Shown here piece by piece: positions 25,114-41,863 of a stretch of DNA of 64,000 bases. The position numbers and the translations under genes are program-made. The notes below the pieces were generated by a model, which saw nothing but the letters and a program-made list of their open reading frames with translations, was not told the origin of the DNA and searched no databases. This stretch comes from an uncultured Alphaproteobacteria bacterium (GTDB lineage Bacteria; Pseudomonadota; Alphaproteobacteria; RF32; CAG-239). The stretch spans positions 39,371 to 103,370 of the forward strand of contig CAKQLF010000003.1 of NCBI GenBank assembly GCA_934254585.1. Direction: 5' to 3'. The first letter of the stretch is position 1; the number at the start of each line of letters is the position of its first letter.

Positions 25114-25196
25114 AGAAAAATGTGTATATTAGAATCACAAATATTTAGAATTTTGTGTATATTTTATATGAATAATTCTTGAATTTTGTGTATTTA
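25114..25196 (+). promoter_or_regulatory. Three direct repeats (consensus AGAAWWTGTGTATATT) phased at exactly 33 bp
   Basis: Copies start at 25114, 25147 and 25180, 50-135 nt upstream of the ATPase ATG at 25249. Confidence 0.6.
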
Positions 25197-25248
25197 TATG
25201 CTATTTATACCTTATAAAATGTGTGTAATCTATTTTAAGGACAAGTCA

Positions 25249-26598
25249 ATGTATCGTAAAGCTGAGCAAATATTGAAAGTATGGAAGGCTAACTTAAAAA
25301 AGAAAGCCTTGCTTATAACCGGTCAACGACAAGCCGGTAAGACTTATATTGTGCGTGAGTTCGGTAAAGCTAATTATAAACACTATGTAGAAATTAACTT
25401 CATTACGACACCCTCTGCTAAAGATATCTTCTCAGGAGATTTAAATGCCGACACTTTGATTATGAATTTAACCGCCTTTATAGGTAAGCCGTTAGAAAAA
25501 GGAAAAACTCTGATATTTCTTGATGAAATACAAGAATGTCCGAATGCTCGAACAGCAATTAAGTTTTTGGTTGATGATGGGCGATTTGATTATATTGAAT
25601 CAGGCTCACTTTTGGGTGTTCAATATAAACAAGTTCCGTCTTATCCTGTAGGTTATGAAGAGATATATCAGATGTATCCGATGGATTTTGAAGAATTTTG
25701 TATTGCAAATGGTGTTCAAACCTCAACGCTTGATTATCTGCGCGAATGTTATGAAAAACAGACGCCGATAACTGATTCCATTCATCAAACAATGTCTAAT
25801 CTATTTAAGTATTACATTGTTGTCGGTGGTATGCCTGATGTGGTCAAAAGATTTATAAACACACGTGATATAGGACAAGTTGTGGGTGTCCAACGAGATA
25901 TTATTGCCCAATATCGGCAAGATATAAACAAATATTCTATCACCGGCAAAAATATGATTAACCATATATTTGATAATATACCATCACAACTGGATGATAA
26001 AAATCGCCGATTTATGCTCTCTTCAATTCAAAAGAATGCCAGACTTCGCGATTATGAAGATTCTTTTGTTTGGCTATCCGATGCCGGAGTTGCTCTGCCG
26101 TGTTATAATTTGACAGAGCCCAAAATACCTCTTAAAATCAACGAACAAAGCCGTTTATTCAAACTCTATATGAGTGATGTCGGCTTACTCTGTGCGATGA
26201 GCTTGGAAAATGTTCAATTTGAGATATTACAAGGGAATTTATCCATAAATATGGGGGGAATCTTAGAAAATGCCTTTGCTGAACTCTTAAAAGCTAACGG
26301 TTTTGCTCTGCGTTACTTAAATAAAAAGAACATCGGTGAGTTGGATTTTGTGGTTCAGCAAAGTGATGAAGTTGTACCGATTGAAATTAAATCAGGTAAA
26401 GATTATAAGGCACATGCCGCACTCAATAATGCTTTAAAAGTTAAGGAATGGAACCTCAAAAAAGGTATTGTATTTTGTATGGATAATATCCAAAAAACTG
26501 ATAAAATAACTTATCTTCCGTGGTATTTGGTGATGTTTTTAAAACAAAATAATTCTGACGAATCAATGATTATAAATGTTGATTTGAGTGGATTATGA
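25249..26598 (+). CDS. AAA_14-type ATPase with a DUF4143-like C-terminal nuclease-fold domain
   Basis: Walker A GQRQAGKTY, Walker B IFLDEIQECP, C-terminal ELDFVV...VPIEIKSG. AAGGA RBS before ATG 25249; the track ORF opens earlier at 25186. Confidence 0.75.
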   Translation: MYRKAEQILKVWKANLKKKALLITGQRQAGKTYIVREFGKANYKHYVEINFITTPSAKDIFSGDLNADTLIMNLTAFIGKPLEKGKTLIFLDEIQECPNARTAIKFLVDDGRFDYIESGSLLGVQYKQVPSYPVGYEEIYQMYPMDFEEFCIANGVQTSTLDYLRECYEKQTPITDSIHQTMSNLFKYYIVVGGMPDVVKRFINTRDIGQVVGVQRDIIAQYRQDINKYSITGKNMINHIFDNIPSQLDDKNRRFMLSSIQKNARLRDYEDSFVWLSDAGVALPCYNLTEPKIPLKINEQSRLFKLYMSDVGLLCAMSLENVQFEILQGNLSINMGGILENAFAELLKANGFALRYLNKKNIGELDFVVQQSDEVVPIEIKSGKDYKAHAALNNALKVKEWNLKKGIVFCMDNIQKTDKITYLPWYLVMFLKQNNSDESMIINVDLSGL

Positions 26599-27045
26599 TA
26601 GTAAATAGTCTGCCGAAATTTGCGAACTTCACGAAAAAAATAGAGAAAATTAATGATACACAAAAAACAAAACGTGTGCTTAATTTTACACTGTGATGCG
26701 AACACCCTAAAAATGCCCATAAAGCCTTATAATTAAAATAAATCTTGTTTTGGTAAAAATAAATCTTTTTCTACTTTAAGTAATAAAAATAAAATTTATA
26801 TTTTGAAAATTTTACAACTATTTGAAGTTACAAGATATCATATGGCGAAGTGCCGCAATCGCTGTTTGAAGAAATCAAGCCGTACTACGACAAACTTTCG
26901 TATTTGGTAGAAAAATTTGAAGTAAAATTTTGCAAAGGAATTGTTAAGTTGGTAGGTATAAAATCATAATATAATAATATAATTGCTTTTTAGTTTGTTA
27001 TTTGATAGCTTTTACATCATCAAATATATTGAGGAAGGAAAACTC

Positions 27046-28803
27046 ATGAATATTTTTTCTTTTTGCATCGGTGCGGCTGTGGTTTGTTTGTATTTTAAAT
27101 GGAAAAAGCAGGCAAATCCAAATAATTCGGATAATAAAATTAAATTGTCTGAAATTAGTAACGACCAGGCATTGAATAAAGTTATTCATCTGATAGATAG
27201 TGGTAGAAATATTTTTATAACAGGCGGTGCAGGGACAGGTAAGAGCTATATGCTTCGTCAGTTAAAATTACATTATAAAACATCTCTAAATTTAACAAGC
27301 ACGACAGGAATATCTGCTATTAATATAAACGGGCAAACAATACATGCTTGGTCTGGTATCGGTATAGATAATAATCCTAACTCATTATGGAATGTACTAA
27401 ATCGAATTATTTCCAATCCAGTGTTAAAAAAACAAATCCTCGATTGTAAAATGTTGGCAATAGATGAAATATCAATGTTACATAAAGATACATTGGAATT
27501 CTTAAATTTAGTTTTGCAAAAAATACGTTGTAACGAGCAACCTATGGGAGGAATACAAACTATTTTTATAGGCGATTTTTTCCAATTACCACCTGTAGTA
27601 AAAGATCGAAAGATTAGTATTGATGATTTTTGTTTCAGTTCTGAAACATGGAAGAAATTGAATTTAGAAACAATTTTATTAAAAGAAGTCAAAAGACAAA
27701 ATGAAATTAGGTATATTAATGTATTAAATCACATAAGAGAAGGTATCGTGGATGAAAAAGACTGGGAGGTTATATTAGATAGATATAATAAAATGCCTCT
27801 TGATATTATTAGTGATAAGACAAAATTACATTTATATTCTACAAACAAGGAAGCAGATGGCTTCAATAATATGTGCTTTGAGCTTATAAAATCGGAGTCT
27901 ATTACATTTGAAAGCGAAGACAAAATAGAATATTATAATGAAAAACAACAGTTAATTTGCATAGAAACCAATCCTGATAAATGGGGAGACTTCGGTAATG
28001 TTTTCAATGAAGATTTTAGAGTACCCCGAGACTTAAAACTAAAAATAGGCTGTAGAGTTATGCTTTTAAAAAACATAGATGTCAAATCAAAGTTAGCCAA
28101 TGGTAGTTGCGGTACGGTAACAGATATTGCAAATGACGTCATTGTAATCAAATTTGATAAAGGTCCGTCTGCTCCTGTTGCAAAAGCAGAATTTGAAAGT
28201 TTTAGATATCGAAAAAAATCATTTGGTGTGGATAAAGGAGATAGTTTCAAACAGCGTATTGTACGCAAACAGTTTCCTGTACGTTTAGCATATGGTATTA
28301 CTATTCACAAATCGCAAGGAATGACATTTGATGAATTGGTTGTGCATTTAGATAAAATATTTGCGGATGGTCAATGTTATGTAGCTTTAAGCCGTACAAC
28401 ATCACTAGAAGGCTTAAACCCAATTGGATTTAATCCTAATAAAATAGTCGTAAATAAAGATGTCGTTAATTTTTATAAAAAATTAGATGATGCATCGATT
28501 ATAAATAATTCAAACAATTTGAATGCAGAAGATAATGAAAGGGAAAAACTTATAAAACAAGCAATAGAAGAAGGTAAAATATTAAAAATAAAATATCATT
28601 CCAATTCACAATACAAAAATGAAGAAACCGTGAGAACTGTTAAGCCTAAAAGACTTGCATACGGAAGAGATTTGAATAATGAAGAAAATGAAAGTTCATA
28701 TCATTTAGAAAATAATAAATTATATATGATAGCATTTTGTGAATTAAGACAACAAACCCGACATTTTAGGGTTGAAAATATTGAAGATATAGAGGTTTTA
28801 TAA
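27046..28803 (+). CDS. Pif1/RecD-like SF1 helicase with an N-terminal hydrophobic segment and a C-terminal WYL domain
   Basis: GGAGTGKSY, AIDEISML, GDFFQLPPV, ITIHKSQGMTFD, YVALSRTTSLEGL. C-terminal LKIKYHS...VRTVKPKRLAY...LYMIAFCELRQQTRHFRVENIEDIEVL is WYL-like. GAGGAAGGA RBS before ATG 27046. Confidence 0.8.
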   Translation: MNIFSFCIGAAVVCLYFKWKKQANPNNSDNKIKLSEISNDQALNKVIHLIDSGRNIFITGGAGTGKSYMLRQLKLHYKTSLNLTSTTGISAININGQTIHAWSGIGIDNNPNSLWNVLNRIISNPVLKKQILDCKMLAIDEISMLHKDTLEFLNLVLQKIRCNEQPMGGIQTIFIGDFFQLPPVVKDRKISIDDFCFSSETWKKLNLETILLKEVKRQNEIRYINVLNHIREGIVDEKDWEVILDRYNKMPLDIISDKTKLHLYSTNKEADGFNNMCFELIKSESITFESEDKIEYYNEKQQLICIETNPDKWGDFGNVFNEDFRVPRDLKLKIGCRVMLLKNIDVKSKLANGSCGTVTDIANDVIVIKFDKGPSAPVAKAEFESFRYRKKSFGVDKGDSFKQRIVRKQFPVRLAYGITIHKSQGMTFDELVVHLDKIFADGQCYVALSRTTSLEGLNPIGFNPNKIVVNKDVVNFYKKLDDASIINNSNNLNAEDNEREKLIKQAIEEGKILKIKYHSNSQYKNEETVRTVKPKRLAYGRDLNNEENESSYHLENNKLYMIAFCELRQQTRHFRVENIEDIEVL

Positions 28804-29517
28804 GATTAATAGAATATTTACTTTATGCATCTTATGGATATCACATAACGTCTTGAATTAATAGATTTCAATAATTTTAAAAATTGTATGATAAACATCA
28901 TATTGTATTTGATATTGTTCTGTTTCCAAGCATTGGTTATATTGTACCGAAAGGAAATACAATGAAGACTGTTAAAATCTATATGGTTAGGAAGCCGTCA
29001 GATATTGAAGAAATAATGGAGTATTCCTGCGTTATAGCAACCAGACAGAGAAAGTTGTAATGAAGGAAACGGTCAACCTACCACAAGTCTGGTATGATGC
29101 TGTGTTACGAAATCCGATGGACAATTACATCTTTTTATCTGGTAAAGGTGGTTATAACGTTGAAAACCACCGCCAAGTGCTTGAATTCCAATGCGCCGAC
29201 AAATCACCCCTTTACGTCGCCCCGTCCGGCTCCTCATACTGCTGTTACATGTGAGTTGAATTATAAAAATGCGCAAATATGAGTATATCCAGCCGAGCAA
29301 CTGCACAACTTTCCGGATGTTATATATAATGCTGGCAGAACCTTGACGCAAATTGAAATGATATTAAAACGGACATACGGGAATCCGCTACCGATAAAGT
29401 CGCAGGACCATTTATTCCGTATAAGGCACAAGCTGGAACAAATGGTCGCCCGCTACAAACAATGCGAGAGTGAACTAAAGAACGAACGTCAAAAGAAAAA
29501 ATGACATTTTGTTTAAT

Positions 29518-30432
29518 TTATTGTGATAAAGGGGAATGTCGGGTAAATTTAATTTCACCTAAAATATCTTCACTCTGATGATGTTCTAAACCCATAATAC
29601 AAATTCTCTCATTATCTACGATACTTTTATCAAATAAATTGTAGTGTTTTTCCGGAATCTTGTCTACATCATCAAAATCCATTGAAGCTATGGCACCAGA
29701 AATATAATCAGGAACCCGAATTAATTCATCAAAAATCTCTTTATTGTATTCTTTACCGCCCCAAAATCCATAAATTTCATTATCATAAATTCTTTTGTTA
29801 AGTAAATTTGAATATCCTAGGCGCACAAGTTCATTTACAATACCATCTTGAAAATCCGTTATTTTATCTCTATCCGGCACCCACATAATATGCTTGGCTT
29901 TTGCTTTTATTAAGAGAAATTCTAATATTGCAGACATAATATGTGCCGTAATAGTGACATTAGACAGCGTTTTCAAATCAATTTCTTTCCGATTGAGATA
30001 ATTTCTCATCTTTTTCATTTTGTGGATAAATTCTTCTTTTTTAGCTGGAGGCCAATTTTCCATATATTTAATTGTTTTATCTAAGACTTGTTTACTATCT
30101 TCCAACGCAAACACATTATTTTTATTTTTAATTATAAATGCCACTGAGAAAAAATAAGGAGCCTCCTTAATATAGTTAATAGCTTTTTCCGAAAGATTCT
30201 TAAAATCCTTAATATCTTTGGATAAATGCCTTTTTATTTCATAATTTAACATCTGAGGCGGAACAAAAGGAAAAATTGTAAAGGTCATGACATCATTAGT
30301 TTTATCTTTATCATCAAGACAGTAATCACTGGTAATGTACCAAGAATCTACACGCTTAAAATTCTGTTGAAACTTTTTCCATTTTTCAACAAAATCAGGA
30401 AAATGGCTGGATAGGATTGTTTTTCTATTCAT
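29518..30432 (-). CDS. Hypothetical protein (304 aa), last gene of the R-M operon; weak DUF3800-like pattern
   Basis: WYITSDYCLDD...MTFTIFP, WVPDRDKI and IRVPDYISGAIAS loosely resemble the N-terminal and C-terminal acidic motifs of DUF3800. This is recollection only. Confidence 0.6.
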   Translation of the reverse strand: MNRKTILSSHFPDFVEKWKKFQQNFKRVDSWYITSDYCLDDKDKTNDVMTFTIFPFVPPQMLNYEIKRHLSKDIKDFKNLSEKAINYIKEAPYFFSVAFIIKNKNNVFALEDSKQVLDKTIKYMENWPPAKKEEFIHKMKKMRNYLNRKEIDLKTLSNVTITAHIMSAILEFLLIKAKAKHIMWVPDRDKITDFQDGIVNELVRLGYSNLLNKRIYDNEIYGFWGGKEYNKEIFDELIRVPDYISGAIASMDFDDVDKIPEKHYNLFDKSIVDNERICIMGLEHHQSEDILGEIKFTRHSPLSQ

Positions 30433-30495
30433 GTCTTCACCATAGTACGTTTGTCATATTATATACTTAGGTTTTATTTCTAAAAATAACAAGAT

Positions 30496-30954
30496 TTATA
30501 GCTTCAAATATTCTAAAAACGCTTGACAGCCTTCGTAAATATCCCAGTAGCTCTCATCAAAATTGCCAGTATACCACGGGTCGCGGATATTGCGCGGATT
30601 ATTCGTAAAATCAAGAAGACGATGGATTTTGTGTCCCGTATCTGGACCTATAAGTGATTGAATGTCCTCAATATTACTGTTATCCATTGCTAAAATATAA
30701 TCATAATACACATAATCTCGCGGGCGAATGCGGCGTGAATAATGTTCTTCAAACGGCACATGCATTGACTTTAATATCTCGCGTGTGCCATAATGAATGC
30801 CGGCGTGGCACATCTCATTATAGCTTTCGGTTGCGGCAGAATTAATTTCAAACTGCTCGGACAAACCTCGTTCCTCAATCATTTGCTTAAACACAAACTG
30901 CGCCATCGGCGACCGGCAAATATTCCCCAAACATACAAACAAAACTTTAATCAT
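30496..30954 (-). CDS. Low-molecular-weight protein-tyrosine phosphatase / ArsC-fold phosphatase
   Basis: VLFVCLGNICRSPMA (CX5R-S P-loop) and DPWYTGNF (general-acid Asp). Internal ATG 30954..30952 shares one base with the hsdR TGA (TGATG). Confidence 0.85.
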   Translation of the reverse strand: MIKVLFVCLGNICRSPMAQFVFKQMIEERGLSEQFEINSAATESYNEMCHAGIHYGTREILKSMHVPFEEHYSRRIRPRDYVYYDYILAMDNSNIEDIQSLIGPDTGHKIHRLLDFTNNPRNIRDPWYTGNFDESYWDIYEGCQAFLEYLKL

Positions 30955-33900
30955 CACGCTTCCATAATATTGTCTGTCCAAAGCTCGCATTGTGTCATAA
31001 CAGTTTGTACGGCGTCTTCAACACCTTCCGGTGGATATTTGTGCTTTTTAAGTAATCTTTTTATGAGCATACGCATTTTGGCCCGAGCCGTTTCTTTTTT
31101 CTGCCAATCTATCGTTTTATTTTTACGCAAAGTTTCGGTAAGTTCTTTTGTTATAGCAATTAATTCATCATTTTCATAAAAATCCTTAACAGCTTGCGGA
31201 CGCGTCAAGGCATCATAAAAAGCCGCTTCTTCGACATTAAGACCTAAATCTTCGCCTTCTTTTTGTGCCGAGGCGATTTGTTTTGCCAGATTAAGCAGCT
31301 CTTCGATAACTTGCTCATTAGTCAACATACCGTTCAAATAGCGGTTCATAGACTCTTGTATCATTTCGCTGAACTTTTCCGAACGCACAACATTAGTATG
31401 GCGATAAATAGAAATCTGCTCAGCTATCAGCTTTTTCAGCAATTCTACGGCTAAGTTTTTTTCTTTCATCTTGGATATTTCTTCCAAAAACTTTGGATCA
31501 AATAGCGAAAATTCTTCTTTTATATCCGAAAACAGGTTGATAACACCATCGCTCTTTATGCTCTGTTCCAACAGTTCGTTAATGCGCTTATTCATTTCCG
31601 GCAATGATATTTTTTTACCGCCTCCGCTTTCGGTTAAACGCAAAATCATAATTCTGACTGCCTCTAAAAACGCCGCCTCAATACGCAAATTTTCTTCAAC
31701 AATGGATGCGCAAAGCGATAGTGCCTGATGTAACATAAGAGCTTGCTTAATAAAGGCATCTTTTTCTTTATTTTTCTCTCTAGCAATGATAAAGTTTGTG
31801 GCACCGCTTATCAATCTTGCTCTGACTAAATTTGAACCAGTAGCAAATTCGCTATAATCAAAACCATGCAATAAATCGCGGCAGACCTGCAATTTTTCCC
31901 TGAATTTATTATATGCTGTGCTGGCAATGTCCATATTGCCGTAGTTCTTTCTATCGCGGATAGTATAATCATTCATTGCCTTTTTCAAAGCGCTGGCAAT
32001 ACCGATATAATCAACCACCAAACCGCCTTCTTTATCTTCAAACACGCGATTAACCCGCGCAATCGCTTGCATCAGGTTATGCCCTTCCATCGGCTTATAA
32101 ACATACATTGTCGCCAATGACGGCACATCAAAACCGGTTAGCCACATATCAACGACAATGGCAATTTTCAGCGGATCGTTATTATCCTTAAATTTGCGCG
32201 CCAATTCTTCTTTATGCGATTTATTGCCGATAATTTTCCGCCAGTCTTCGGGGTCATTATTACTTGAGGTCATAACCACGGCAATTTTATCTTGCCAGTT
32301 TGGACGCAATTCCAAAAGACGATGATAAATTTTCAGGGCAATCGGACGAGAATAGGCCACAATCATAGCCTTACCGGTCAACAAATTTTCGCGATAGTTT
32401 TCGTAGTGGTCCAAAATATCGCAGACAAGCGAATTGATAGTGTCATCATCGCTCAAAATAGTTTCCATTTGTCCGAGCTGTTTTTTGCTCTTTTCAATGA
32501 CTTCCGGCTCGGCATTTTGCGCCATTAAATCATATTCAGCATCAATAAGTTGCAAAATTTCCGGCTTTAGATGAAGTTTTATGACGCGGCTTTCATAATA
32601 AACCGGACGCGTTGCGCCGTCTTCCACCGCTTGTGTCATATCGTAAACATCGATATAGTCGCCAAATACCTCTCGCGTGTTGCGGTCATCAAGAGAAAGC
32701 GGAGTTCCGGTAAAACCGATATATGTCGCGTTTGGCAGAGAATTGCGAATAATTCGCGCCGTACCGACTCTAATATTTCCGTCTTTATCTATCTTTTCAG
32801 ACAAGCCATATTGGCCGCGGTGTGCCTCGTCAGCCATCACGATAATATTCCGGCGTTCTGACAACGGCTCCGCTGATTCCTCAAACTTTTGCATCGTGGT
32901 AAAGAAAATTCCATTAGCTTTGATACCCTCTAAAAGCTGTTTCAAATGAGCACGGCTTGTTGCGTGCACCGATTCTTGGCGCAAAAAATCTTTGCATTTA
33001 GCAAATTGCGTATAAAGTTGGTCATCCAAATCGTTACGGTCGGTAATAACAACTATTGTCGGGCTGTTTAATGCACTTTGCAATAAATGAGCATAAAACA
33101 CCATAGAAAGCGATTTTCCGCTGCCCTGCGTATGCCAGAACACACCGCCTTTACCGTCTGTTTGCGTGGCGTGCTTGGTAGATTCAATAGCTTTTTTAAC
33201 CGCAAAATATTGATGATAACCGGATAGAATTTTGACGGCACCTTTGTTTCCGTTAGAAAAGCAAATAAAATTTTTCAATATATCCAACAGACGCGATTTT
33301 TCAAAAATCCCATTAAAAAATGTGTCAAACTGCGCATATTTGGTGTTTTCGTACGAACCGTCAACCGTTTTCCACTCCATAAAACGTGTTTCATCAGAAG
33401 TAATCGTTCCGGCTTTAGATACCGCCAAATCACTCATCACGCAAATTGCGTTATATATAAACATAGACGGAATTTCGTGTTTATAATTTTGAATTTGCCG
33501 ATATGCTTCTGAAGCATCTGTTTCTTCGCGGGACGGGGATTTTAATTCCATCAGCACGAGCGGCAAACCGTTGATAAACAGCAGAACATCCGGACGTTTC
33601 TCGCTGTTTTCAATAAAAGTCCATTGGTTGGCGATGATAAAGGAGTTATTATCTGGATTTTCATAATCAATCAAATAAACAATCGTATCGCGCGGCTCGC
33701 CTTTTTCGGTATAGCGGACGGTGATGCCGTTTTGCAAATAATCCATAAAAACAGCGTTTTTCTGCGTTAATTCGGCATTTTCAAAGTTTTTGAGCTTAAA
33801 CAGAGCCTCGTTTATCGCCTCATCCGGCAAATTAGGATTGATTTGGTGGAGAGAATTTGTCAGCACAGCCTCATACAACGGCGAAGTAAAATCCCTAGTT

Positions 33901-34001
33901 TCCACATCCGGCCCATAAATATGCGTATATCCCATGCCCTCAAACAACTCTATAATAGAGTTTTCATACGCTTCTTCATTTACCGGATTTGTGTAGGTCA
34001 T
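30954..34001 (-). CDS. hsdR: Type I restriction enzyme, R subunit
   Basis: 1015 aa. N-terminal nuclease region, QGSGKSL Walker A, MADEAHRGQ DEAH box, helicase C-terminal motifs (QAIARVNR). Confidence 0.95.
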   Translation of the reverse strand: MTYTNPVNEEAYENSIIELFEGMGYTHIYGPDVETRDFTSPLYEAVLTNSLHQINPNLPDEAINEALFKLKNFENAELTQKNAVFMDYLQNGITVRYTEKGEPRDTIVYLIDYENPDNNSFIIANQWTFIENSEKRPDVLLFINGLPLVLMELKSPSREETDASEAYRQIQNYKHEIPSMFIYNAICVMSDLAVSKAGTITSDETRFMEWKTVDGSYENTKYAQFDTFFNGIFEKSRLLDILKNFICFSNGNKGAVKILSGYHQYFAVKKAIESTKHATQTDGKGGVFWHTQGSGKSLSMVFYAHLLQSALNSPTIVVITDRNDLDDQLYTQFAKCKDFLRQESVHATSRAHLKQLLEGIKANGIFFTTMQKFEESAEPLSERRNIIVMADEAHRGQYGLSEKIDKDGNIRVGTARIIRNSLPNATYIGFTGTPLSLDDRNTREVFGDYIDVYDMTQAVEDGATRPVYYESRVIKLHLKPEILQLIDAEYDLMAQNAEPEVIEKSKKQLGQMETILSDDDTINSLVCDILDHYENYRENLLTGKAMIVAYSRPIALKIYHRLLELRPNWQDKIAVVMTSSNNDPEDWRKIIGNKSHKEELARKFKDNNDPLKIAIVVDMWLTGFDVPSLATMYVYKPMEGHNLMQAIARVNRVFEDKEGGLVVDYIGIASALKKAMNDYTIRDRKNYGNMDIASTAYNKFREKLQVCRDLLHGFDYSEFATGSNLVRARLISGATNFIIAREKNKEKDAFIKQALMLHQALSLCASIVEENLRIEAAFLEAVRIMILRLTESGGGKKISLPEMNKRINELLEQSIKSDGVINLFSDIKEEFSLFDPKFLEEISKMKEKNLAVELLKKLIAEQISIYRHTNVVRSEKFSEMIQESMNRYLNGMLTNEQVIEELLNLAKQIASAQKEGEDLGLNVEEAAFYDALTRPQAVKDFYENDELIAITKELTETLRKNKTIDWQKKETARAKMRMLIKRLLKKHKYPPEGVEDAVQTVMTQCELWTDNIMEA

Positions 34002-34025
34002 GAGTTATGCTCCTTTAAACTATTT

Positions 34026-34352
34026 TTAATCTTCGTTGATGTACTCAGGATAAAAAGGAATTGAAAACTTTATACGGGAAATATGTTCATTATTATACCC
34101 TCGTTCTCCGTTAATATTTGCACCAAGAACACTAATTCCAATTTTACTTTCTCCTTTAGCTGTTCCGCCTTCTGAGCTTGTAACAGCAATATCAAAATCT
34201 ATGGCATGACTATTATAATCTAAACTAGATACTTTATAAGCTGCAATAACATGGCATTTATTATTTGGGTGTAAGTTATATTTTTGTTTTAATTTTTGCG
34301 TAGCATCTACTATATCAGAAACAGATTGTTCAATAAATTCTTTCAATTCCAT
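34026..34352 (-). CDS. Small protein (108 aa) resembling the trypco2 (trypsin-co-occurring domain 2) family
   Basis: N-terminal helix MELKEFIEQSVSDIVDA, then a beta-rich segment IDFDIAVTSSEGGTAKGESKIGISVLGANINGERGYNNEHISRIKFSIP. The pattern matches what I recall of trypco2. The ATG overlaps the upstream TAA (TAATG). Confidence 0.6.
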   Translation of the reverse strand: MELKEFIEQSVSDIVDATQKLKQKYNLHPNNKCHVIAAYKVSSLDYNSHAIDFDIAVTSSEGGTAKGESKIGISVLGANINGERGYNNEHISRIKFSIPFYPEYINED

Positions 34353-35191
34353 TATTTTTTCTCCTTTAAGCCTTTAAGAAATTCTGACATATTATCTTTA
34401 CGTTCTTTATTATCTTTTATCAAAACGCAGAATAAAAGCAACTGATAAAGTTCATCATACCAATTTTCCAATTCCAAATCAGTCAAATTTAAAACTAATT
34501 CTTTTTTATTTTTACCATCTCTATTATTATGGCGAATATCTAGATTATTAAGCATATTATTAGCCGTTTTAAAATAGTCTGTAAACCCTTCTATAGGTTT
34601 ATCTAAAGTCGGCTCATATTCTTGTGCAATACGTCGTAAAATATCTTTTTTCTCGGCTAATTTACCTTCTAAAGATGCATGATGATACATTAAAATTGCC
34701 ATTGCCGTATCTTCTGAAGATATTTCAGCAACAGCAGTTGCTGCAGGATTTTTAGGAATAAGGATAACTTTTTCATCTTCCTCAAAAACATGTTTTTCAT
34801 AATTAAGATGTTCAAGCAGAATATTTATATTTTGTTCAAACATTAAAAACTCACGAGTTTTTGTAAAATGAGGCGAGAATAATTTTGTATTTACTAAGTT
34901 AACCATATTACAAATATATTCTAATTTGCAAATTTTTCCTTCATCCGCAAGAGCCTTTAAACCTGTAAGGTCTAATTTTTTCATCATATCCTCTGCTGTA
35001 AGACAAGCACCTCTTTGCTTCCATTCATAAAAACAAGTATTATTTACTGCATTCACAATAGTAGTTTGATTACCATTAACGTAATAACGATTATCTATAA
35101 GTAATGGAGAATTAAATAATTGTTCTATAACTACAAATTCAGAAAATGTATTATATTTACTTTCTAAAATCTCAAAAATATTCTTTCGCAT
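34352..35191 (-). CDS. Hypothetical protein (279 aa) between hsdS and hsdR
   Basis: Clean ORF starting 11 nt after hsdS, with its stop overlapping the next start. No family recognised. Notable strings: ILMYHHASLEGKL and NNLDIRHNNRDG. Confidence 0.65.
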   Translation of the reverse strand: MRKNIFEILESKYNTFSEFVVIEQLFNSPLLIDNRYYVNGNQTTIVNAVNNTCFYEWKQRGACLTAEDMMKKLDLTGLKALADEGKICKLEYICNMVNLVNTKLFSPHFTKTREFLMFEQNINILLEHLNYEKHVFEEDEKVILIPKNPAATAVAEISSEDTAMAILMYHHASLEGKLAEKKDILRRIAQEYEPTLDKPIEGFTDYFKTANNMLNNLDIRHNNRDGKNKKELVLNLTDLELENWYDELYQLLLFCVLIKDNKERKDNMSEFLKGLKEKK

Positions 35192-35202
35192 TTATTTTTC
35201 CC

Positions 35203-36348
35203 TTATAATAACATATCTGCAGCATTAAATTTGTTTATGTCAACTTTTGATACATCAATTTCGCCACTCATAAGTTTCGGCAACAAGGCATCCCGAAGTG
35301 CCACCAGCCGAGTATTTTCTTGTTGGTTATGCCCAATTAACATATATAATGGTGTCGCATCTTCATTATATTTTTTTACTAGTCCAAGATTTATTTCTTT
35401 TATTGGCATATTTTCTATATGTTGAGGGTATATATGAGGTTGGGCAGAACCTGTTTGGGCTTCAAAAATTTCTTGTTGCCTCATTTTCAGAGTAACGTAC
35501 CAAAAGTATACATATGGTGTAATCGTAGCATCTATAAATGATGAATCAGATGACCAAACAGGTATATGCCATAAATTAACATAACCAGCATTTGCTCCAG
35601 AGGCTGAAATGGTTATTACTGGGGTGATTGTATTTGCTTGATTATGATAAGTTGCCGGAGATAAACCTCCAGCCACAACAGGTACGATTCCCTTTACAGC
35701 ATCTTTAGATAATAAGTTTTTTCCTCTTTTAGGTGATAAATATTCTCCAATGCTTTTATTACCCAATTTTATATCCGGAAAATATTGCTTAAACAAAGCC
35801 TGAGCCTGTTGTTCTAAATTATTATTTATCTTACTATTCAGCTCGATTTTATCATCCAGCACACCCAACACCACCGCAATCTTTTTCTGAATATCCATCG
35901 GCGGCAACAAGATTTTCATAGGTGCTAATTCAGAAGAAAATGTTATCTGAGGAAATGTGCCGGAACGAGTTTCAGCTAAATGTTGTAACTCACTGATGAT
36001 ATTTTTAGATTTTAAGATATTAAATAAAAACTTAGATAATATCTTTTCTTTATTAGGGCGCAGAACCATTAATTTTGTGGATGCAATATAGTTAGATGTA
36101 TCATCAAAATCTACGTAAGCAAATCTTTTGTTTGCAGGCCTTATTTCAGAGTACAAAATATCATCTTTTTTGAAAGTTTTTTTGAATTGTCCTTTTAATT
36201 TTTCATTTTTTACAAGTTCATGATTCAAAATTTTTCCTTCTAAAACATCAGAGGTATTAACCAATACAACATGCTCATCCTTGTTGTGATATGTCTCAGA
36301 AATAGATGAGCAAACATCCCCCAATCTAACTTCTTGCCATTTAGTCAT
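35203..36348 (-). CDS. hsdS: Type I restriction enzyme, S (specificity) subunit
   Basis: 381 aa. Two target-recognition halves separated by a conserved helix (KIAVVLGVLDDKIELNSKINNNLEQQAQALFKQYF) and ended by a C-terminal helix (LVALRDALLPKLMSGEI). Confidence 0.9.
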   Translation of the reverse strand: MTKWQEVRLGDVCSSISETYHNKDEHVVLVNTSDVLEGKILNHELVKNEKLKGQFKKTFKKDDILYSEIRPANKRFAYVDFDDTSNYIASTKLMVLRPNKEKILSKFLFNILKSKNIISELQHLAETRSGTFPQITFSSELAPMKILLPPMDIQKKIAVVLGVLDDKIELNSKINNNLEQQAQALFKQYFPDIKLGNKSIGEYLSPKRGKNLLSKDAVKGIVPVVAGGLSPATYHNQANTITPVITISASGANAGYVNLWHIPVWSSDSSFIDATITPYVYFWYVTLKMRQQEIFEAQTGSAQPHIYPQHIENMPIKEINLGLVKKYNEDATPLYMLIGHNQQENTRLVALRDALLPKLMSGEIDVSKVDINKFNAADMLL

Positions 36349-36367
36349 TAAACTTCCTTTATAATAA

Positions 36368-37429
36368 TTATTTTCTATCTTTTGAGGTTAACCTATTGTT
36401 TATCATATCTATCAATAATAAAGTTTTTTCATTTTGAGGTAAAGCCTCAATTTGTTTTATCCATATTTCTTTATCGGCAAGAGTAATATAATGTTTATTT
36501 ACTCTACACATATAATCTCTTAATGCATTTATCGCATTATCTATATCACCCAACATTATACATAATTCTGCTAAATTATAATAATTTACATATATTTTTT
36601 CATCTAAACTGATTGATTCTAAAATACATTTTTTAGCATTTTGATAATCTTTTATACCAATATATGCACATCCTAGATTAGCCAACACACCAGCATCTCT
36701 TTTTATTTTTAAGCATTCTTCTAAATCGTTAATGGCCTTTTTATACTCTTCTTTCTTTAAATATACTTCTGCACGTAAAGATAAATTTTGTATTGTCTTC
36801 ATAATTTCAATAGATGAACTTATAGTGCCTATTGCCTTATCATAATTCTTACTAGATATATCATGTGCTATGTTTATAGATATACCTGAAAGCATTGAAT
36901 TAGCTTTAACCTCTTTTGCAAGATTTTCAACTTCTTGAAGTTGCTTTCTCATTTCATCCACATTAACTGAAGTCTGTTCTTTCTGAGTTTTGCATTCTGC
37001 TATAATCTTATCAATTTCTCTTTTTTTATCTTCAAAAAACTTTACAAAACAAATAGGAACTATAATTGCAAAGATACCAACCATAATAGCCAACATAGAG
37101 AGCCAAAAATTTAGATAGTAACTTTGATGTTCAAAATACTTTTCCAAAAATTGTTTATATTCATATTTCTGCATATCATCAATGGGCTTAACTACATTAT
37201 TAGTAGCTATATGATACGATTGATTAGTTGCATCATTAACAATCGTCAATGTTTCAATAAAATTTTTATTTGCAATAATACTTTCTTCAACTAATGTCCT
37301 AATACTTAAATATTGCCATATAGTAAGAGCCACCATTGTAGTACAAAGAATTCCATATGTAATAACTGCATATTTTAATATAGGATAGACTTTTATATTT
37401 CTTAAAACTAATTTTAAATTTTTCATCAT
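36368..37429 (-). CDS. Two-TM membrane protein with a cytoplasmic coiled coil and TPR repeats
   Basis: 353 aa. Hydrophobic segments at about residues 15-45 and 97-125, then a charged helical stretch, then TPR-like repeats (YKKAINDLEECLKI..., YQNAKKCILESISL..., IDNAINALRDYM). Confidence 0.65.
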   Translation of the reverse strand: MMKNLKLVLRNIKVYPILKYAVITYGILCTTMVALTIWQYLSIRTLVEESIIANKNFIETLTIVNDATNQSYHIATNNVVKPIDDMQKYEYKQFLEKYFEHQSYYLNFWLSMLAIMVGIFAIIVPICFVKFFEDKKREIDKIIAECKTQKEQTSVNVDEMRKQLQEVENLAKEVKANSMLSGISINIAHDISSKNYDKAIGTISSSIEIMKTIQNLSLRAEVYLKKEEYKKAINDLEECLKIKRDAGVLANLGCAYIGIKDYQNAKKCILESISLDEKIYVNYYNLAELCIMLGDIDNAINALRDYMCRVNKHYITLADKEIWIKQIEALPQNEKTLLLIDMINNRLTSKDRK

Positions 37430-37528
37430 TTTTCGACCTTGTTTTTCCTATGCTTGTTTACTTACAAATCTTCATTTACCCTAATATTATCACATTACAA
37501 ATTGGAAATGTATATATTTTTTTAATTT

Positions 37529-38494
37529 CTACCCATTATTCAGCACGCTTAAAATTACTTGTTTCATCGTTTCTTTTTCTTCCGGCTTGCTTTCGGCAAT
37601 TAAGATCGTAAGAGTAAATAATGTTGTATTATCAATAAGTTGAATATTGTTTTGATAGAGAATTCCGTTTTTATCCAGAAAATACAAAAAACAGGCCGCG
37701 CCAATCCGCTTATTACCATCTGTAAAGCTATGGTTTTTAACTAGAAAATAGAGCAACATTGCCGCTTTTTCTTCTAACGAAGGATAACATTCTTGCCCTC
37801 CGAATGTCTGATAAATTTGGTTAATAGAGCTGTCAAAACTATCATCTTTGGGGTTTGCGAATACGTCAGAACCAAACTCCGGTTTCATTTTATCAATAAC
37901 GTTCAAAAATTCTTCTTTTTTAATAATCACCGCCGGTTTTGTTGTCTTACCTTTAGTATCAAGAGTTTTGTTATCATAATCATCCAGCAAATCCAGACCG
38001 GAAGCAAAATCAGCCATTAAGGCACTTAACTTTTTAGCATCATCTAGATTATCTACCTGATGCTCAATACTTCGGTTTAAGAGCTTAATCGCATTTTGTA
38101 ACTGTGAAATTTTGGATTTTTGCTCTTGTAACCGTTTTTCATTAACAGCATATCCGTCTACAAGATATTGCTTTAATATCCCTGTCGCCCATTTGCGGAA
38201 TCTACTTGCTTCTATTGAGTTTGCTCTGTATCCAACAGCCAAAACTATATCTAAGTTATAGAACTCAACAGGTTTATCTGAATTTGGAATGTGCATTTTT
38301 TGCACATTGCTTTTTTCCTCAATTTCCCCAGATTTAAAAATATTATTGATGTGCCTTGATACACCGGATCTGTCTATATTAAATAATTTAGCAATTTCTT
38401 GTTTATTAAGCCAAATAGTATCTGCTTGATAGTCTATCTGAACATCTATATCGCCATACGATGTATCATATATTTTTAAAGCATTAGTTCCCAT
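37529..38494 (-). CDS. RhuM-like N-terminal domain fused to a Fic/Doc (death-on-curing) domain
   Basis: WLNKQEIAKLFNIDRSGVSRHINNIFKSGE is RhuM-like. HSFTDGNKRIGAACFLYFL is the Doc-type Fic motif. The ATG directly abuts the hsdM stop codon. Confidence 0.8.
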   Translation of the reverse strand: MGTNALKIYDTSYGDIDVQIDYQADTIWLNKQEIAKLFNIDRSGVSRHINNIFKSGEIEEKSNVQKMHIPNSDKPVEFYNLDIVLAVGYRANSIEASRFRKWATGILKQYLVDGYAVNEKRLQEQKSKISQLQNAIKLLNRSIEHQVDNLDDAKKLSALMADFASGLDLLDDYDNKTLDTKGKTTKPAVIIKKEEFLNVIDKMKPEFGSDVFANPKDDSFDSSINQIYQTFGGQECYPSLEEKAAMLLYFLVKNHSFTDGNKRIGAACFLYFLDKNGILYQNNIQLIDNTTLFTLTILIAESKPEEKETMKQVILSVLNNG

Positions 38495-40006
38495 TTACTT
38501 TATCTCCCAGCCGATTGCTTTCAGCTTTTCGCGGATTTCCGACTGCAAAGCGTCGGACTGCTTGAACATATCCGCAAGCTCGCCTGTCAGGCGTTTCATC
38601 TTGTCTTCAAACGGTTCGCCGTCATCTTGCTGTTCTTCAATACCGACATAGCGTCCCGGCGTTAAAATATAATCCTGCGCCGCAATTTCCGCTGTCGTGG
38701 CAACGGCGCAAAAGCCTTTGATATTCTCTAATGTGCCGTTTTGAAATGCCGTAAACATATCGGCAATCTTTTTAATATCGGCATCAGTAAAATCGCGGTG
38801 CTTGCGGTCAACCATATAGCCCATTTTACGCGCATCAATAAATACAGTGCGTCCTTTTTGTGGCTTATTTTTGCTGATAAACCACAGCGTTACCGGAATT
38901 GTAACGCTATAAAACAGTTGCGGCGGCAAAGCGATAATACCCTCTATCAAATCGGCTTCAATAATGTTTTTGCGGATTTCACCTTCGCCGCTGGTTTGGG
39001 TGGAAAGCGCGCCGTTTGCCAACACCAAACCGATTTTACCATTCGGTGCGAGATGGTGTATCATGTGTTGAATCCACGCATAGTTTGCATTTCCGGCAGG
39101 CGGAATGCCATACTTCCAACGCACATCATCTTGTAACTTATCTTGTCCCCAATTAGAAAGGTTAAACGGTGGATTAGCCATAATAAAATCAAACTTTTCA
39201 TGCGGGTGCTGGTCATTAAAAAATGTATCCGCCTGATATGGCCCGAAATCAGCATCAATGCCGCGAATTGCCATATTCATTTTTGCCATTTTCCAGGTAT
39301 CAGCGTTGGATTCTTGCCCATAAACCGATATGTGGTCGCGATTTCCGCCATGTGCCTGTAAAAATTTAACCGATTGAACGAACATTCCGCCGGAACCACA
39401 GCAAGGGTCATAAACGCGGCAGTTGTCAAACGGTTTCAAAACTTCCACAATGGTCTTAACAATGCTTGATGGCGTATAAAATTCACCGCCTTTGGTGCCT
39501 TCGTATGCGGCAAACTGGGCAATACAGTATTCGTATGTGCGCCCGAGCAAGTCTTTATCTTCGTCGGTCTCAGACATATCAATATTGTTGGTAAAGAGGT
39601 CAACAACATTGCCTAAAACACGTTTATCTAGGTCTTGGTTGGCATAATTCTTAGGCAGAACATTCTTAAGCGATTTATTTTCAGCTTCAATGGCTCGCAT
39701 GGCATCATCAATAATAATGCCGATTTCAGGAGTATGTGCCGCTTCAGCAATTTTACTCCAACGAGCGGCTTCCGGAACATAAAATATACCTTCCATTGTG
39801 TAGGCATCTTTTTCATCTTCAAAGCCATCGCCCTCTGCAACTAGCTGATTATAGCGTTTTTCAAAGGCCGCAGAAATATAACGCAAAAAAATAAGCCCGA
39901 CAATTACTTTTCGGTAATCTGCCGCCGGAATATGTCCCCACAGCTCACATGCCGCATTCCAAATTTGCTTTTCAAAACCAATATTGGCGTTATTTTTTTC
40001 TGCCAT
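38495..40006 (-). CDS. hsdM: Type I restriction enzyme, M (N6-adenine methyltransferase) subunit
   Basis: HsdM N-terminal domain (FEKQIWNAACELWG), SAM motif DPCCGSGGMF, catalytic IMANPPFN. Confidence 0.95.
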   Translation of the reverse strand: MAEKNNANIGFEKQIWNAACELWGHIPAADYRKVIVGLIFLRYISAAFEKRYNQLVAEGDGFEDEKDAYTMEGIFYVPEAARWSKIAEAAHTPEIGIIIDDAMRAIEAENKSLKNVLPKNYANQDLDKRVLGNVVDLFTNNIDMSETDEDKDLLGRTYEYCIAQFAAYEGTKGGEFYTPSSIVKTIVEVLKPFDNCRVYDPCCGSGGMFVQSVKFLQAHGGNRDHISVYGQESNADTWKMAKMNMAIRGIDADFGPYQADTFFNDQHPHEKFDFIMANPPFNLSNWGQDKLQDDVRWKYGIPPAGNANYAWIQHMIHHLAPNGKIGLVLANGALSTQTSGEGEIRKNIIEADLIEGIIALPPQLFYSVTIPVTLWFISKNKPQKGRTVFIDARKMGYMVDRKHRDFTDADIKKIADMFTAFQNGTLENIKGFCAVATTAEIAAQDYILTPGRYVGIEEQQDDGEPFEDKMKRLTGELADMFKQSDALQSEIREKLKAIGWEIK

Positions 40007-40048
40007 TTTAGACCTCTTAATTTTGTAAAATTATAAACTGTTGCGATT

Positions 40049-40077
40049 ATGATATTTACTAAGATTTTAAAAGTCAA
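40049..40077 (-). promoter_or_regulatory. Sigma-70-type promoter candidate for the hsdM operon
   Basis: TTGACT, 17 nt spacer, TATCAT read on the minus strand. AAGAGG RBS before the hsdM ATG. Confidence 0.5.
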
Positions 40078-40142
40078 AATAAATATCGCTGTTTCCGCCA
40101 AAATCTAAGAGGCCGGCTATAAAAAAAACGCAAAGGGGAGGA

Positions 40143-40488
40143 TGGTGGGCACTGCAAGACTGACTACGCTAACGCTCCGCCGACGCGTCGTTCACAGCCT
40201 TTGGCTGCCGGCGTTCTGCCGCCCGCCTTTCTCTCGCTCTCAAACTTGCTTTCTCGCAAGTTCGAGGACCTTTTAAAATGCCCACAAAAAAACCACTCCT
40301 AAAGAGTGGTCTTTATGGTGGGCACTGCAAGACTGACTACGCTAATGCTCCGCCGACGTATCGTTCACAGCCTTTGGCTGCCGGCGTTCTGTCGCCCGCC
40401 TTTCTCTCGCTCTCAAACTTGCTTTCTCGCAAGTTCGAGAACCTTTTAAAATGCCAACAAAAAAAACACTCCTAAAGAGTGGTCTTTA
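40143..40488 (-). repeat. Two tandem 173-bp repeat units, each carrying an exact copy of the last 19 nt of tRNA-Met plus its terminator hairpin and a GC-rich core
   Basis: Units 40143..40315 and 40316..40488 differ at 7 positions by my hand alignment. Each begins (plus strand) with TGGTGGGCACTGCAAGACT, identical to the tRNA 3' end at 40489..40507. Confidence 0.9.
40458..40482 (-). terminator. Rho-independent terminator of tRNA-Met
   Basis: Minus strand reads CACTC-TTTAG-GAGTG followed by T8, immediately after the CCA end. Confidence 0.65.
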
Positions 40489-40565
40489 TGGTGGGCACTG
40501 CAAGACTCGAACTTGCGACCAGACCGTTATGAGCGGCCGGCTCTAACCAACTGAGCTAAGTGCCC
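40489..40565 (-). tRNA. tRNA-Met (anticodon CAT); tRNA-Ile2 (lysidine) not excluded
   Basis: Hand-folded 77-nt cloverleaf: GGGCACT/AGTGCCC acceptor, GCTC/GAGC D stem, GGCCG-CTCATAA-CGGTC anticodon arm, GCAAG-TTCGAGT-CTTGC T arm, encoded CCA. G1-C72 pairing argues against an initiator tRNA. Confidence 0.9.
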
Positions 40566-41128: not shown

Positions 41129-41755
41129 TTATTTGCCAGTGAAAAAAAAGTCACATAGATTATCGGAAGCTGAACAATCACAAGCTAAAGCCGCTTTATC
41201 CGGAGATATGGGAATTTGATTATCCTTGGCGCAAGCATAGGCAGAGCCTTTTCCAAAAGCAGATCCGTGAAGACAATCAGTAAGACTCAACTCCATATTT
41301 GTTAGAAGATTATTAATATTATCCTGTGTCTGTATACCAACTGCGCCAAAATAATTTTGCCAGGCCTGTGTTGCCAACTCAATACAGGCATCTTCAGGAA
41401 TATGTCTTATTGCTATTGAATAAGCTCTCATTTCACCATCCATATCATCAATATCAAAATGCGTACCATCATACCAAGCAGCGGTAATTATAACTTCTCC
41501 ATTAAAAGCATTTTTTATTTCACCATTTTCATCATACATTTCCGCCGGAATAATTCCAGAAGCTTTCAAATCAATATCACTTAAACTCGCGTAATTTTTT
41601 TGATTAGCGTATAATGTTTTTATGTTATTGGCTATTGTTATAACTTCATCAATAACTTTATTGGTTTTGAACTTGGTCATTGCTTTGGAATAACCGGCAA
41701 TACCACCAACGCTTAAAACACCGATGATGGCCAGAACTCCCAACATTTCAATCAT
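41129..41755 (-). CDS. Type IV pilin-like protein (paralog A)
   Basis: Contains G-RSMIEMLGVLAIIGVLSVGGIAGYSKAM, a class III signal-type N-terminus with Glu at +5 after the Gly. Cys-rich C-terminus. The start is unresolved: no ATG/GTG/TTG lies just upstream of the Gly. The first in-frame ATG is the Met of SMIEML, at 41755. The frame stays open up to 42172. Confidence 0.7.
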   Translation of the reverse strand: MIEMLGVLAIIGVLSVGGIAGYSKAMTKFKTNKVIDEVITIANNIKTLYANQKNYASLSDIDLKASGIIPAEMYDENGEIKNAFNGEVIITAAWYDGTHFDIDDMDGEMRAYSIAIRHIPEDACIELATQAWQNYFGAVGIQTQDNINNLLTNMELSLTDCLHGSAFGKGSAYACAKDNQIPISPDKAALACDCSASDNLCDFFFTGK

Positions 41756-41863
41756 CGAACGACCATAATCTCTCGCCCCGTGCTGGAGAGAGTGGCACGA
41801 CAGTGCCGAGTGAGGGGTATTTATTAAATTGCAAACAGCTCTTAACCATCGTCCCAATCTATT

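Follow-up and report, generated by a model that had tools for sequence, protein, structure and literature searches.

The type I restriction-modification operon and its inserts

The subject of this study is a type I restriction-modification (R-M) operon in a stretch of 64,000 nucleotides (nt) from an uncultured alphaproteobacterium of the human gut, hereafter called the window. Nine open reading frames (ORFs) on the minus strand occupy positions 29518-40006. From hsdM downward, they encode HsdM, a fusion of a RhuM-like and a Doc-type domain (RhuM-Doc), a tetratricopeptide repeat protein with two transmembrane segments (2-TM TPR protein), HsdS, a 279-aa protein (u279), a 108-aa Trypco2/Pepco-like protein, HsdR, a low-molecular-weight (LMW) phosphotyrosine phosphatase and a 304-aa protein (u304). 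The ORF coordinates bear out the co-directional order and every spacing given in the initial annotation, the gaps being 0, 99, 19, 11, -1, 24, -1 and 63 nt, and its domain labels proved correct in searches of Pfam, PADLOC and NCBIfam.

Domains and motifs show that the type I R-M operon is intact and that non-R-M genes are interspersed among hsdM, hsdS and hsdR. HsdM comprises HsdM_N (PF12161) and N6_Mtase (PF02384; E = 1e-109 in Pfam), matches the PADLOC MTase_I model with E = 1e-193 and shows in its translation the motif DPCCGSGG, which binds S-adenosylmethionine, as well as NPPF. In HsdS, Methylase_S (PF01420) was detected, and the PADLOC Specificity_I models align in two stretches over its 381 aa; both target-recognition halves are present. 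HsdR is likewise intact, with HSDR_N, SWI2_SNF2/ResIII, T1R_D3-like and T1RH-like_C domains (Pfam), 611 bits against TIGR00348 (cutoff 285) and the motifs D..ELK, GSGKS and DEAH; its closest solved structure is EcoR124I HsdR (E = 1e-31). These Pfam, PADLOC and TIGR matches together with the motifs confirm the earlier description of a type I R-M operon interleaved with non-R-M genes. The R-M genes would restrict unmethylated DNA in the classical way.

Six embedded genes had been counted originally. Only four of them lie within the R-M genes; those for the phosphatase and u304 are located beyond hsdR and recur behind an unrelated hsd system in one of our comparison loci (L095; these loci carry L-numbers from L003 to L231). 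The four passengers occupy two intervals that would function as slots: slot 1 between hsdM and hsdS, here with the genes for RhuM-Doc and the TPR protein, and slot 2 between hsdS and hsdR, here with the genes for u279 and the 108-aa protein. The inserts had also been called unusually dense. With 4,493 nt between hsdM and hsdR, the locus is unremarkable within this hsd family, in which related loci have a median of 3,737 nt and a range of 789-5,458 nt (n = 40), ten of the 40 being as large or larger. Loci L116-L119 even harbour five embedded genes, and the insert density is therefore normal for the family.

The hsd frame itself is widespread, hsdM and hsdR retaining 75-98% identity between phyla. 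A scan for hsdR with one genome per species revealed at least 588 loci with an hsdR that is 75-94% identical, distributed over Alphaproteobacteria, Bacillota, Bacteroidota, Melainabacteria, Treponema, Fusobacteriota and Actinomycetota. Sequence identity of this degree implies that the system has recently moved between gut bacteria of different phyla. The close relatives of the locus are all metagenome-assembled genomes of uncultured gut Alphaproteobacteria, and megablast with the entire locus as query found nothing in plasmids.

Within this frame, the interior differs from locus to locus. In L100, hsdM and hsdR are both 98% identical to those of the window, RhuM-Doc 80%, hsdS 36%, u279 94% and the 108-aa protein 50%, and the TPR protein is replaced by an unrelated membrane protein of 353 aa. 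In L096 (hsdM 99%, RhuM-Doc 98%, hsdR 96%), slot 1 contains a 475-aa unknown, and in slot 2 an AAA_15/21 ATPase takes the place of u279 and the 108-aa gene. In L125, on the other hand, u279 is only 64% identical, and the 108-aa protein and the TPR protein reach 98% and 86%. The hsdS gene shares merely 24-36% identity with that of most related loci, so the specificity was swapped as well. Slot 1 of related loci accommodates a TIR protein, an AAA_21-DUF4435 protein resembling PtuA/AriAB, an HATPase_c_3 protein, small unknowns and unrelated membrane proteins. Loci of the same hsd family in Bacillota have, in place of u279, additional hsdS copies in inverted orientation, a shufflon-like arrangement.

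The base composition is mosaic, too. The GC content at third codon positions (GC3) of the TPR (0.169), u279 (0.17) and 108-aa (0.16) genes amounts to 0.16-0.17 and that of RhuM-Doc to 0.30, in contrast to 0.42-0.44 for hsdM (0.435) and hsdR (0.42); hsdS has a value of 0.26. The question whether the inserts travel together, which had been raised before, has a twofold answer: sister loci with hsdM and hsdR identities of 96-99% carry different cargo in both slots, but the placement is non-random with respect to the slots. u279 is mostly found after hsdS, the 108-aa gene after u279 and RhuM-Doc after hsdM, and the TPR homologue of L121 resides in the same slot as in the window. The sequence comparison shows that the interior genes assort independently. 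The rlo genes of Campylobacter are reportedly variable ORFs between hsd genes that differ among strains with related frames; they are similar to our locus with respect to variable inserts in related hsd frames and different in that other gene families are involved. The AAA_15/21 ATPase, which is found only in L096 and not in the window, would be RloA-like.

Table 1. Coordinates of the hsd locus and of neighbouring features in the window
Feature	Position	Strand	Remarks
hsdM	38495-40006	minus	
RhuM-Doc, 321 aa	37529-38494	minus	slot 1, first gene
2-TM TPR protein, 353 aa	36368-37429	minus	slot 1, variable position
hsdS, 381 aa	35203-36348	minus	
u279, 279 aa	34352-35191	minus	slot 2
Trypco2/Pepco-like protein, 108 aa	34026-34352	minus	slot 2; 1-nt overlap with u279
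hsdR	30954-34001	minus	
LMW phosphotyrosine phosphatase, 152 aa	30496-30954	minus	beyond hsdR
u304, 304 aa	29518-30432	minus	beyond hsdR
Sigma-70-like promoter candidate upstream of hsdM	40049..40077	minus	TTGACT-17-TATCAT, 10/12; consensus match only
Internal promoter candidate in the 99-nt gap	37486..37514	minus	TATACA-17-GATAAT, TG-extended -10; consensus match only
TATAAT candidate	63-nt gap before u304 gene	minus	
tRNA-Met (CAT)	40489..40565	minus	ARAGORN; Rfam RF00005, 64.7 bits; directly upstream of operon
Two tandem units of 173 nt, 96% identical	40142..40487		each repeats the last 20 nt of the tRNA
AAA_14/DUF4143 ATPase	25186-26598	plus	PADLOC PDC-S01, E = 2e-181
PIF1-WYL helicase	26983-28803	plus	Pfam

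The passenger proteins

For the passenger u279, no match was found in Pfam, NCBIfam, PADLOC-DB v2.0.0 or PHROG. Its homologues form at least 540 sequence clusters at E <= 1e-3, none of which has a Pfam domain or a meaningful name. No homologue was obtained by tblastn against plasmid and phage collections, and seven distant ones are located on IMG/VR contigs. The AlphaFold2 (AF2) model, a confident one (pLDDT 85.9), has a mixed alpha/beta architecture; Foldseek retrieved nothing for it at E <= 0.001 from PDB and BFVD, and the sequence profile yielded only coiled-coil noise in the PDB. Among homologues down to 29% identity, the invariant residues include E91, N95, E156, Y169, H171, K181, E193, E242, Y245, D246 and Y249, and in some loci only the C-terminal half (143-279) is conserved. 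By hhalign, u279 is unrelated both to the Abi_C protein in the same slot of L095 (probability 0.1%) and to a 254-aa protein of L121.

A census of the genomic context of u279 covered 93 loci, 48 of which are informative because at least 3 kb of sequence is available on each side. In 21 of these 48, u279 is part of a type I locus, usually right after hsdS and before hsdR, and its hosts belong to at least four hsd families, with HsdR proteins 70-94%, 40-43%, 33-34% and 27% identical to that of the window. In another 17, it is situated between an SNF2-family helicase and a methyltransferase resembling type III Mod (PDB 6k0w, E = 9e-78; EcoP15I Mod, E = 5e-60), frequently followed by a DUF2971 gene and a RhuM gene. 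Many of these 17 loci are closely related to each other and are therefore not independent events. Distant u279 homologues (about 30-35% identical) in this SNF2/Mod-like setting are found in L160-L188 (for example L163, 2097-10697). The remaining ten informative loci had no R-M gene detectable by tblastn, although one of them (L007) encodes two Eco57I-like methyltransferases according to Pfam. Tandem u279 paralogues are present in L011. Even so, u279 is a specific associate of ATP-dependent R-M systems (38 of the 48 informative loci) and a new R-M-associated protein, with a candidate function in defence or as an R-M accessory.

The 108-aa protein that follows u279 matches PF19631 (Trypco2) with 16.7 bits over positions 1-74 of the 78 in the model, the gathering score being 24.2. 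Its family has 41 homologues, and 27 of the 39 aligned members match PF19631 singly with E < 0.1, the best with E = 3.7e-4; a search of the Trypco2-like profile against the PDB gave no match. Trypco1 and Trypco2 were originally described as proteins encoded next to trypsin-like peptidases (Kaur et al. 2020, PMC7159879) and are now named Pepco, a pore-forming defence effector by experiment (Evans et al. 2025, bioRxiv 10.1101/2025.11.14.688446). Pepco is a pre-assembled nonameric or decameric beta-barrel that requires an amphipathic N-terminal helix and becomes a lethal pore once a protease cuts the C-terminal tail after a conserved isoleucine, I97 of 117 aa (bioRxiv 10.1101/2025.11.14.688446). 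Our protein is of similar size (108 vs 117 aa) and also starts with an amphipathic helix (hydrophobic moment 1.55 on the Kyte-Doolittle scale), followed by a region with an alternating beta-strand pattern. Its C-terminus reads IKFS-I98-PFYPEYINED, with F96, P99 and P102 invariant and the last ten residues forming a tail in which proline and acidic residues are frequent, so that I98 corresponds to I97 of SsPepco in front of a short tail of proline and charged residues; the conserved isoleucine before such a tail and the amphipathic N-terminal helix are both present. The 108-aa protein would accordingly be a small membrane-permeabilising beta-barrel of the Pepco kind.

It differs from Pepco in its setting. 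Neither beside the gene nor elsewhere in the operon is a trypsin-, caspase- or subtilisin-like protease encoded, and none of the nine products contains a peptidase domain in Pfam at E <= 0.1. The idea that u279 might be the missing protease was rejected, since neither an invariant Ser or Cys nor a metalloprotease motif exists across distant u279 homologues. The hosts are gut Alphaproteobacteria and phages of Bacteroidota, in contrast to Actinobacteria and cyanobacteria for Pepco, and the partner is u279 or, in phages, a repressor. In hsd loci, the 108-aa gene nearly always follows u279 (L003, L006, L016, L019, L100, L116-L119, L124-L126, L128), with the exception of L018, where a membrane protein with three transmembrane segments precedes a gene of this type. 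The alleles of the two are nevertheless uncoupled, with u279/108-aa identities of 94/50, 64/98 and 95/48%.

Viral relatives of the 108-aa protein, 24-43% identical, occur on IMG/VR contigs (L211-L229) and in temperate phages of Porphyromonas and Bacteroides. In the phage relatives, the tail is longer and contains much Pro, Lys and Glu. In two annotated phages (L230 = BK068089.1 5001-5405; L231 = PQ571275.1 5001-5390), the gene is co-oriented with a repressor or helix-turn-helix (HTH) regulator and lies a few bases downstream of it, a rexAB-like placement as in lambda. None of the viral loci with such relatives contains u279, and the repressor-like genes upstream had no match in the PDB. This placement supports the view that the 108-aa protein may be a self-contained exclusion or abortive-infection effector without a dedicated adjacent protease. 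A distant homologue (40% identical) stands alone beside an insertion sequence (rve) element in L101/L102 (context P0160); a weak Peptidase_C1-like gene about 2.5 kb away on the opposite strand is the sole protease seen near any member of the family.

The first gene of slot 1 encodes a RhuM/Ant-like N-terminal domain (PF13310) fused to a Doc-type Fic domain (PF02661, 46.3 bits, cutoff 24). None of the inserts had been considered nameable; RhuM-Doc, however, is PADLOC PDC-S23 (PDLC04965, E = 3.4e-118), residues 3-319 covering profile positions 4-324 of 327. TIGR01550 is matched with 35.1 bits, slightly below its cutoff of 38.65, PHROG reports a Doc-like toxin and Ant, and the Doc-family protein 9vzc was found in the PDB (E = 4e-5). 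The motif HSFTDGNKR fits the Doc-type pattern HxFx(D/N)(A/G)NKR. Doc of phage P1 is reportedly a kinase that phosphorylates EF-Tu. RhuM-Doc shares with P1 Doc and Fic toxins the motif H-x-F-x-D-G-N-K-R and the Doc-like matches in TIGR01550 and PHROG, but is fused to a RhuM/Ant-like domain instead of being paired with Phd, and follows hsdM without any gap. No Phd-type antitoxin gene was found beside it, the neighbours being hsdM and the TPR gene, and no product of the operon has a Phd-like domain in Pfam. RhuM-Doc would combine a kinase toxin of the Doc type with a sensor domain resembling Ant/RhuM.

The second protein of slot 1 contains TPR_1/2/8 repeats (Pfam), a coiled coil and two transmembrane segments (residues 17-38 and 104-134). 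By the positive-inside rule, the N- and C-termini and with them the TPR domain would be cytoplasmic. It would be a membrane-anchored sensor or scaffold. PADLOC-DB v2.0.0 has no model for it, and in GTDB species genomes no orthologue was found, generic TPR matches only. A search of a representative library revealed a family that shares its N-terminal two-TM region. The closest member of that family (41% identical) is again encoded between hsdM and hsdS, in L121, where hsdR is 73% and u279 42% identical, and the 86% identical protein of L125 occupies the same slot. An identical TPR protein was present in 47 index blocks; all 23 contigs that were read have the same nine-gene order and probably represent one strain or species.

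Explanations for the passengers

Based on the observed gene content, intact motifs, slot positions, mosaic of identity and composition, and distribution across loci, we favour the explanation, with a probability of about 0.62, that the locus is a type I R-M frame with two swap slots whose four passengers work autonomously as a second line of defence by abortive infection, the phosphatase and u304 being outside the unit. The conserved hsdM and hsdR would act as homology arms, and the DNA between them would be swapped gene by gene through recombination. The passengers would originate from AT-rich donors and would be expressed with the operon or from internal promoters of their own. All biochemical activities and the anti-phage role are inferred.

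Embedding as a source of anti-phage functions, which the initial annotation had called known, is a general phenomenon that has been published: genes embedded in type I R-M, BREX and DISARM systems have been described as 'guilt-by-embedding' PDC candidates (Payne, Hughes, Fineran, Jackson 2024, bioRxiv 10.1101/2024.01.29.577857). The locus is not categorically new, and as a whole it is no surprise, since embedding in R-M operons is already known. In common with these candidates, our locus has non-R-M genes nested among hsdM, hsdS and hsdR, a full-length PDC-S23 and variable cargo that is often defence-like; in contrast to them, u279, the Trypco2-like protein and the TPR protein have no PADLOC-DB v2.0.0 model, and the hosts are mainly uncultured gut bacteria. 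New in our study are u279 as an unnamed, R-M-specific family without a recognisable fold, a protease-less Pepco-like protein in R-M operons and in the immunity regions of prophages, and an hsd frame common to several phyla that clearly behaves like a cassette site. For a new function in defence or as an R-M accessory, u279 is a clean candidate, one that would have escaped RefSeq-based screens. The Pepco-like protein prompts one to ask what controls such pores. These two unnamed passenger families recurring inside restriction systems are worth testing. The hsdM/hsdR frame, almost the same in different phyla and with cassette-like exchange inside, is a natural example of the spread of defence cargo in the bacteria of the human gut.

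Several points weigh against second-line modules. u279 has no recognisable domain or fold, and its role as a defence module therefore rests on position alone. The Trypco2 match is below the threshold and the protease that defines Pepco is absent. PDC-S23 is itself a candidate defence family, as PDCs are predictions from embedding that have not all been validated (bioRxiv 10.1101/2024.01.29.577857). The nearest relative of the TPR protein outside its family (P0225, 28-30% identical) is found in a housekeeping context. The gaps of 0-24 nt and the two 1-nt overlaps would also fit a functional coupling of passengers and R-M genes, and the overlap of hsdR with the phosphatase gene by one nucleotide is odd for a mere neighbour.

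The main rival is a guard model. Similar to PrrC, u279, with or without the Trypco2-like protein, would be held latent by the R-M enzyme, and a phage anti-restriction protein would free it to cause cell death, for instance with the 108-aa protein permeabilising the membrane. PrrC provides the precedent: EcoprrI keeps it latent, and Stp of T4 activates it (PMC1484252, PMC2610378). Our locus resembles prr in that a foreign gene, there the PrrC anticodon nuclease of the type IC system EcoprrI, lies inside a type I operon, and the nearest solved relative of our HsdR is from the type IC enzyme EcoR124I; a latent suicide effector tied to an R-M enzyme would be a plausible logic for u279. It differs in that no insert has an ABC-ATPase or anticodon-nuclease domain in Pfam, PADLOC or NCBIfam and that u279 also occurs in type III Mod-like/SNF2 systems. 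The near confinement of u279 to ATP-dependent R-M systems of several unrelated families, its position right after hsdS or before hsdR, often with overlapping or nearly overlapping stop and start codons, and the Trypco2-like gene that usually follows it in hsd loci are consistent with such a guard. However, ten informative loci lack a detectable R-M gene, apart from the Eco57I-like methyltransferases of L007, the Bacillota branch of the same hsd family does without u279, and the host enzymes are very different. Furthermore, the u279 alleles are uncoupled from those of hsdR and of the Trypco2-like gene, which argues against tight co-evolving contacts. While the strict R-M embedding of u279 sustains the guard, the uncoupled alleles and the variety of enzymes weaken it, and we consider it possible, though unlikely.

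A related conjecture, which we regard as speculative and rather improbable, assigns to u279 the role of an adaptor or sentinel of ATP-dependent restriction enzymes, both type I of several families and SNF2/type III Mod-like. In this role, u279 would keep watch over the R-M complex and, if restriction were blocked or overwhelmed, would permit effectors that permeabilise membranes to act, among them the adjacent protease-less Pepco-like protein. If true, this would represent a new, fold-novel class of R-M-coupled abortive-infection switch, and no Pepco-type pore before it would have been activated other than by a dedicated protease.

In comparison to second-line modules, it appears improbable that the inserts are an incidental mosaic, that is, selfish or neutral hitch-hikers in a recombination hot spot (addiction-type toxins or remnants of mobile elements, for instance) that add no defence function. 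The different cargo of near-identical frames, its foreign composition, a Doc-type toxin domain typical of addiction modules and the internal promoter candidates would be expected from hitch-hikers. However, all four ORFs are intact and each family is conserved in the same slot at 40-60% identity across distant loci, the cargo of sister loci includes recognised defence domains (TIR, PtuA/AriAB-like ATPase, Abi_C), and no transposase or integrase was detected inside the operon by Pfam. Moreover, embedded genes provided defence in seven tested systems (bioRxiv 10.1101/2024.01.29.577857).

We see very little room for u279 as a control or establishment factor, comparable to a C-protein or to restriction alleviation, that delays or tempers the nuclease/translocase subunit after horizontal transfer. 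Its position before hsdR, or between helicase and methyltransferase, is kept across several R-M classes, and the host hsd family is exceptionally mobile; both points speak for it. Yet no HTH or other DNA-binding domain was detected in u279 (Pfam, NCBIfam), the equally mobile Bacillota branch has no u279, and some homologues lack a detected R-M neighbour or, in L011, form tandem paralogues.

The initial annotation had derived all nine genes from a single promoter-like site. This site upstream of hsdM is present, but further promoter candidates exist in the 99-nt and 63-nt gaps, and a scan of the minus-strand intergenic gaps of the operon revealed no terminator-like site. Matches to the promoter consensus are barely above chance in the region (69 vs 53 +/- 8.4 expected), and one transcript for all nine genes is possible. 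A single integrated defence system of nine genes is disfavoured to the point of being hardly credible: co-directionality, short gaps, the absence of intergenic terminators and the constant gene order of the 23 metagenome contigs fit it, but its parts assort independently in sister loci, the phosphatase-u304 pair stands behind an unrelated hsd system, L100 has no u304, and internal promoter candidates exist in two of the gaps.

Flanking genes and probable island setting

Beyond hsdR, the phosphatase has an LMWPc domain (PF01451, 117 bits) with the P-loop motif CLGNICRS (CX5R(S/T)) and the DP acid motif DPWY, and the ATG of its gene and the stop codon of hsdR have one base in common. Its GC3 of 0.425 is like that of hsdM and hsdR; the overall GC content of the window is 0.38. 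The pair of phosphatase and u304 recurs at 92-96% identity in L095 behind a different type I system (hsdM 34%, hsdR 32%), in which hsdS and hsdR are separated by an Abi_C protein and hsdR is followed by a reverse transcriptase. The two genes are therefore considered site neighbours rather than cargo. L100 has the phosphatase without u304, L014 and L015, the other loci with a 94% identical hsdR, have neither, and in L094 and L099 the phosphatase is reduced to its last 39 residues, with a SocA/Panacea gene just upstream in L094. A functional pairing of the Doc kinase with the phosphatase was discarded as speculation, as the phosphatase is present without RhuM-Doc in L095. The same applies to an action against phage kinases, a link that is not made in the T7-kinase paper.

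For u304 (GC3 0.25), no sequence-family match was found in Pfam or NCBIfam, and its 58 homologues are confined to gut Alphaproteobacteria. The AF2 model (pLDDT 90.1), in which D36, D73, D187 and D242 are invariant residues, has as its best Foldseek match RNase HII (1eke, probability 0.98, E = 5.6e-3), with RNase H2/HIII and PIWI domains ranking next. All these matches are weak (E > 1e-3, TM-scores 0.3-0.4), though consistent, and u304 is probably an RNase H-like nuclease according to the model. The phosphatase and u304 would mark the chromosomal side of an island, outside the R-M unit. An ORF of 92 aa downstream of u304 (29073-29351, minus strand) recurs in L095 with 59% identity and in L100 as a fragment. 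PADLOC and PHROG gave no match for this ORF, which sits in a local GC-rich patch with overlapping plus-strand ORFs.

The region of about 25-40 kb has the appearance of a variable defence island next to a tRNA gene, owing to the neighbouring PDC-S01 ATPase and PIF1-WYL helicase. The stretch 25186..28803 is part of this island and also gave partial PDC-S68/M16A matches in PADLOC. A PIF1-WYL helicase directly after hsdR was noted in L004, and an AAA_14/DUF4143 gene directly before the u304 homologue in L098. At the other end, the tRNA-Met gene was the only Rfam match within 28-42 kb. The 18-mer GTCTTGCAGTGCCCACCA from the repeated tRNA end occurs three times, with 0.01 occurrences expected by chance, and the two tandem units look like stacked att-like scars of repeated integration or excision. 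No integrase was found near these repeats, and the search for the tRNA 3'-end repeat elsewhere in the window and in 99 comparison loci returned only the three adjacent copies. Positions 22008-22042 were dismissed as the far island end, the partial similarity being merely a terminator-like hairpin.

The locus exists with two upstream contexts, dnaK/dnaJ or pheS/pheT (L110 vs L111), which may reflect a rearrangement or an assembly artefact. Upstream of the tRNA, a bundlin/PilS-like gene (41129-42172) encodes a protein whose length varies between 322 and 347 aa among metagenome copies.

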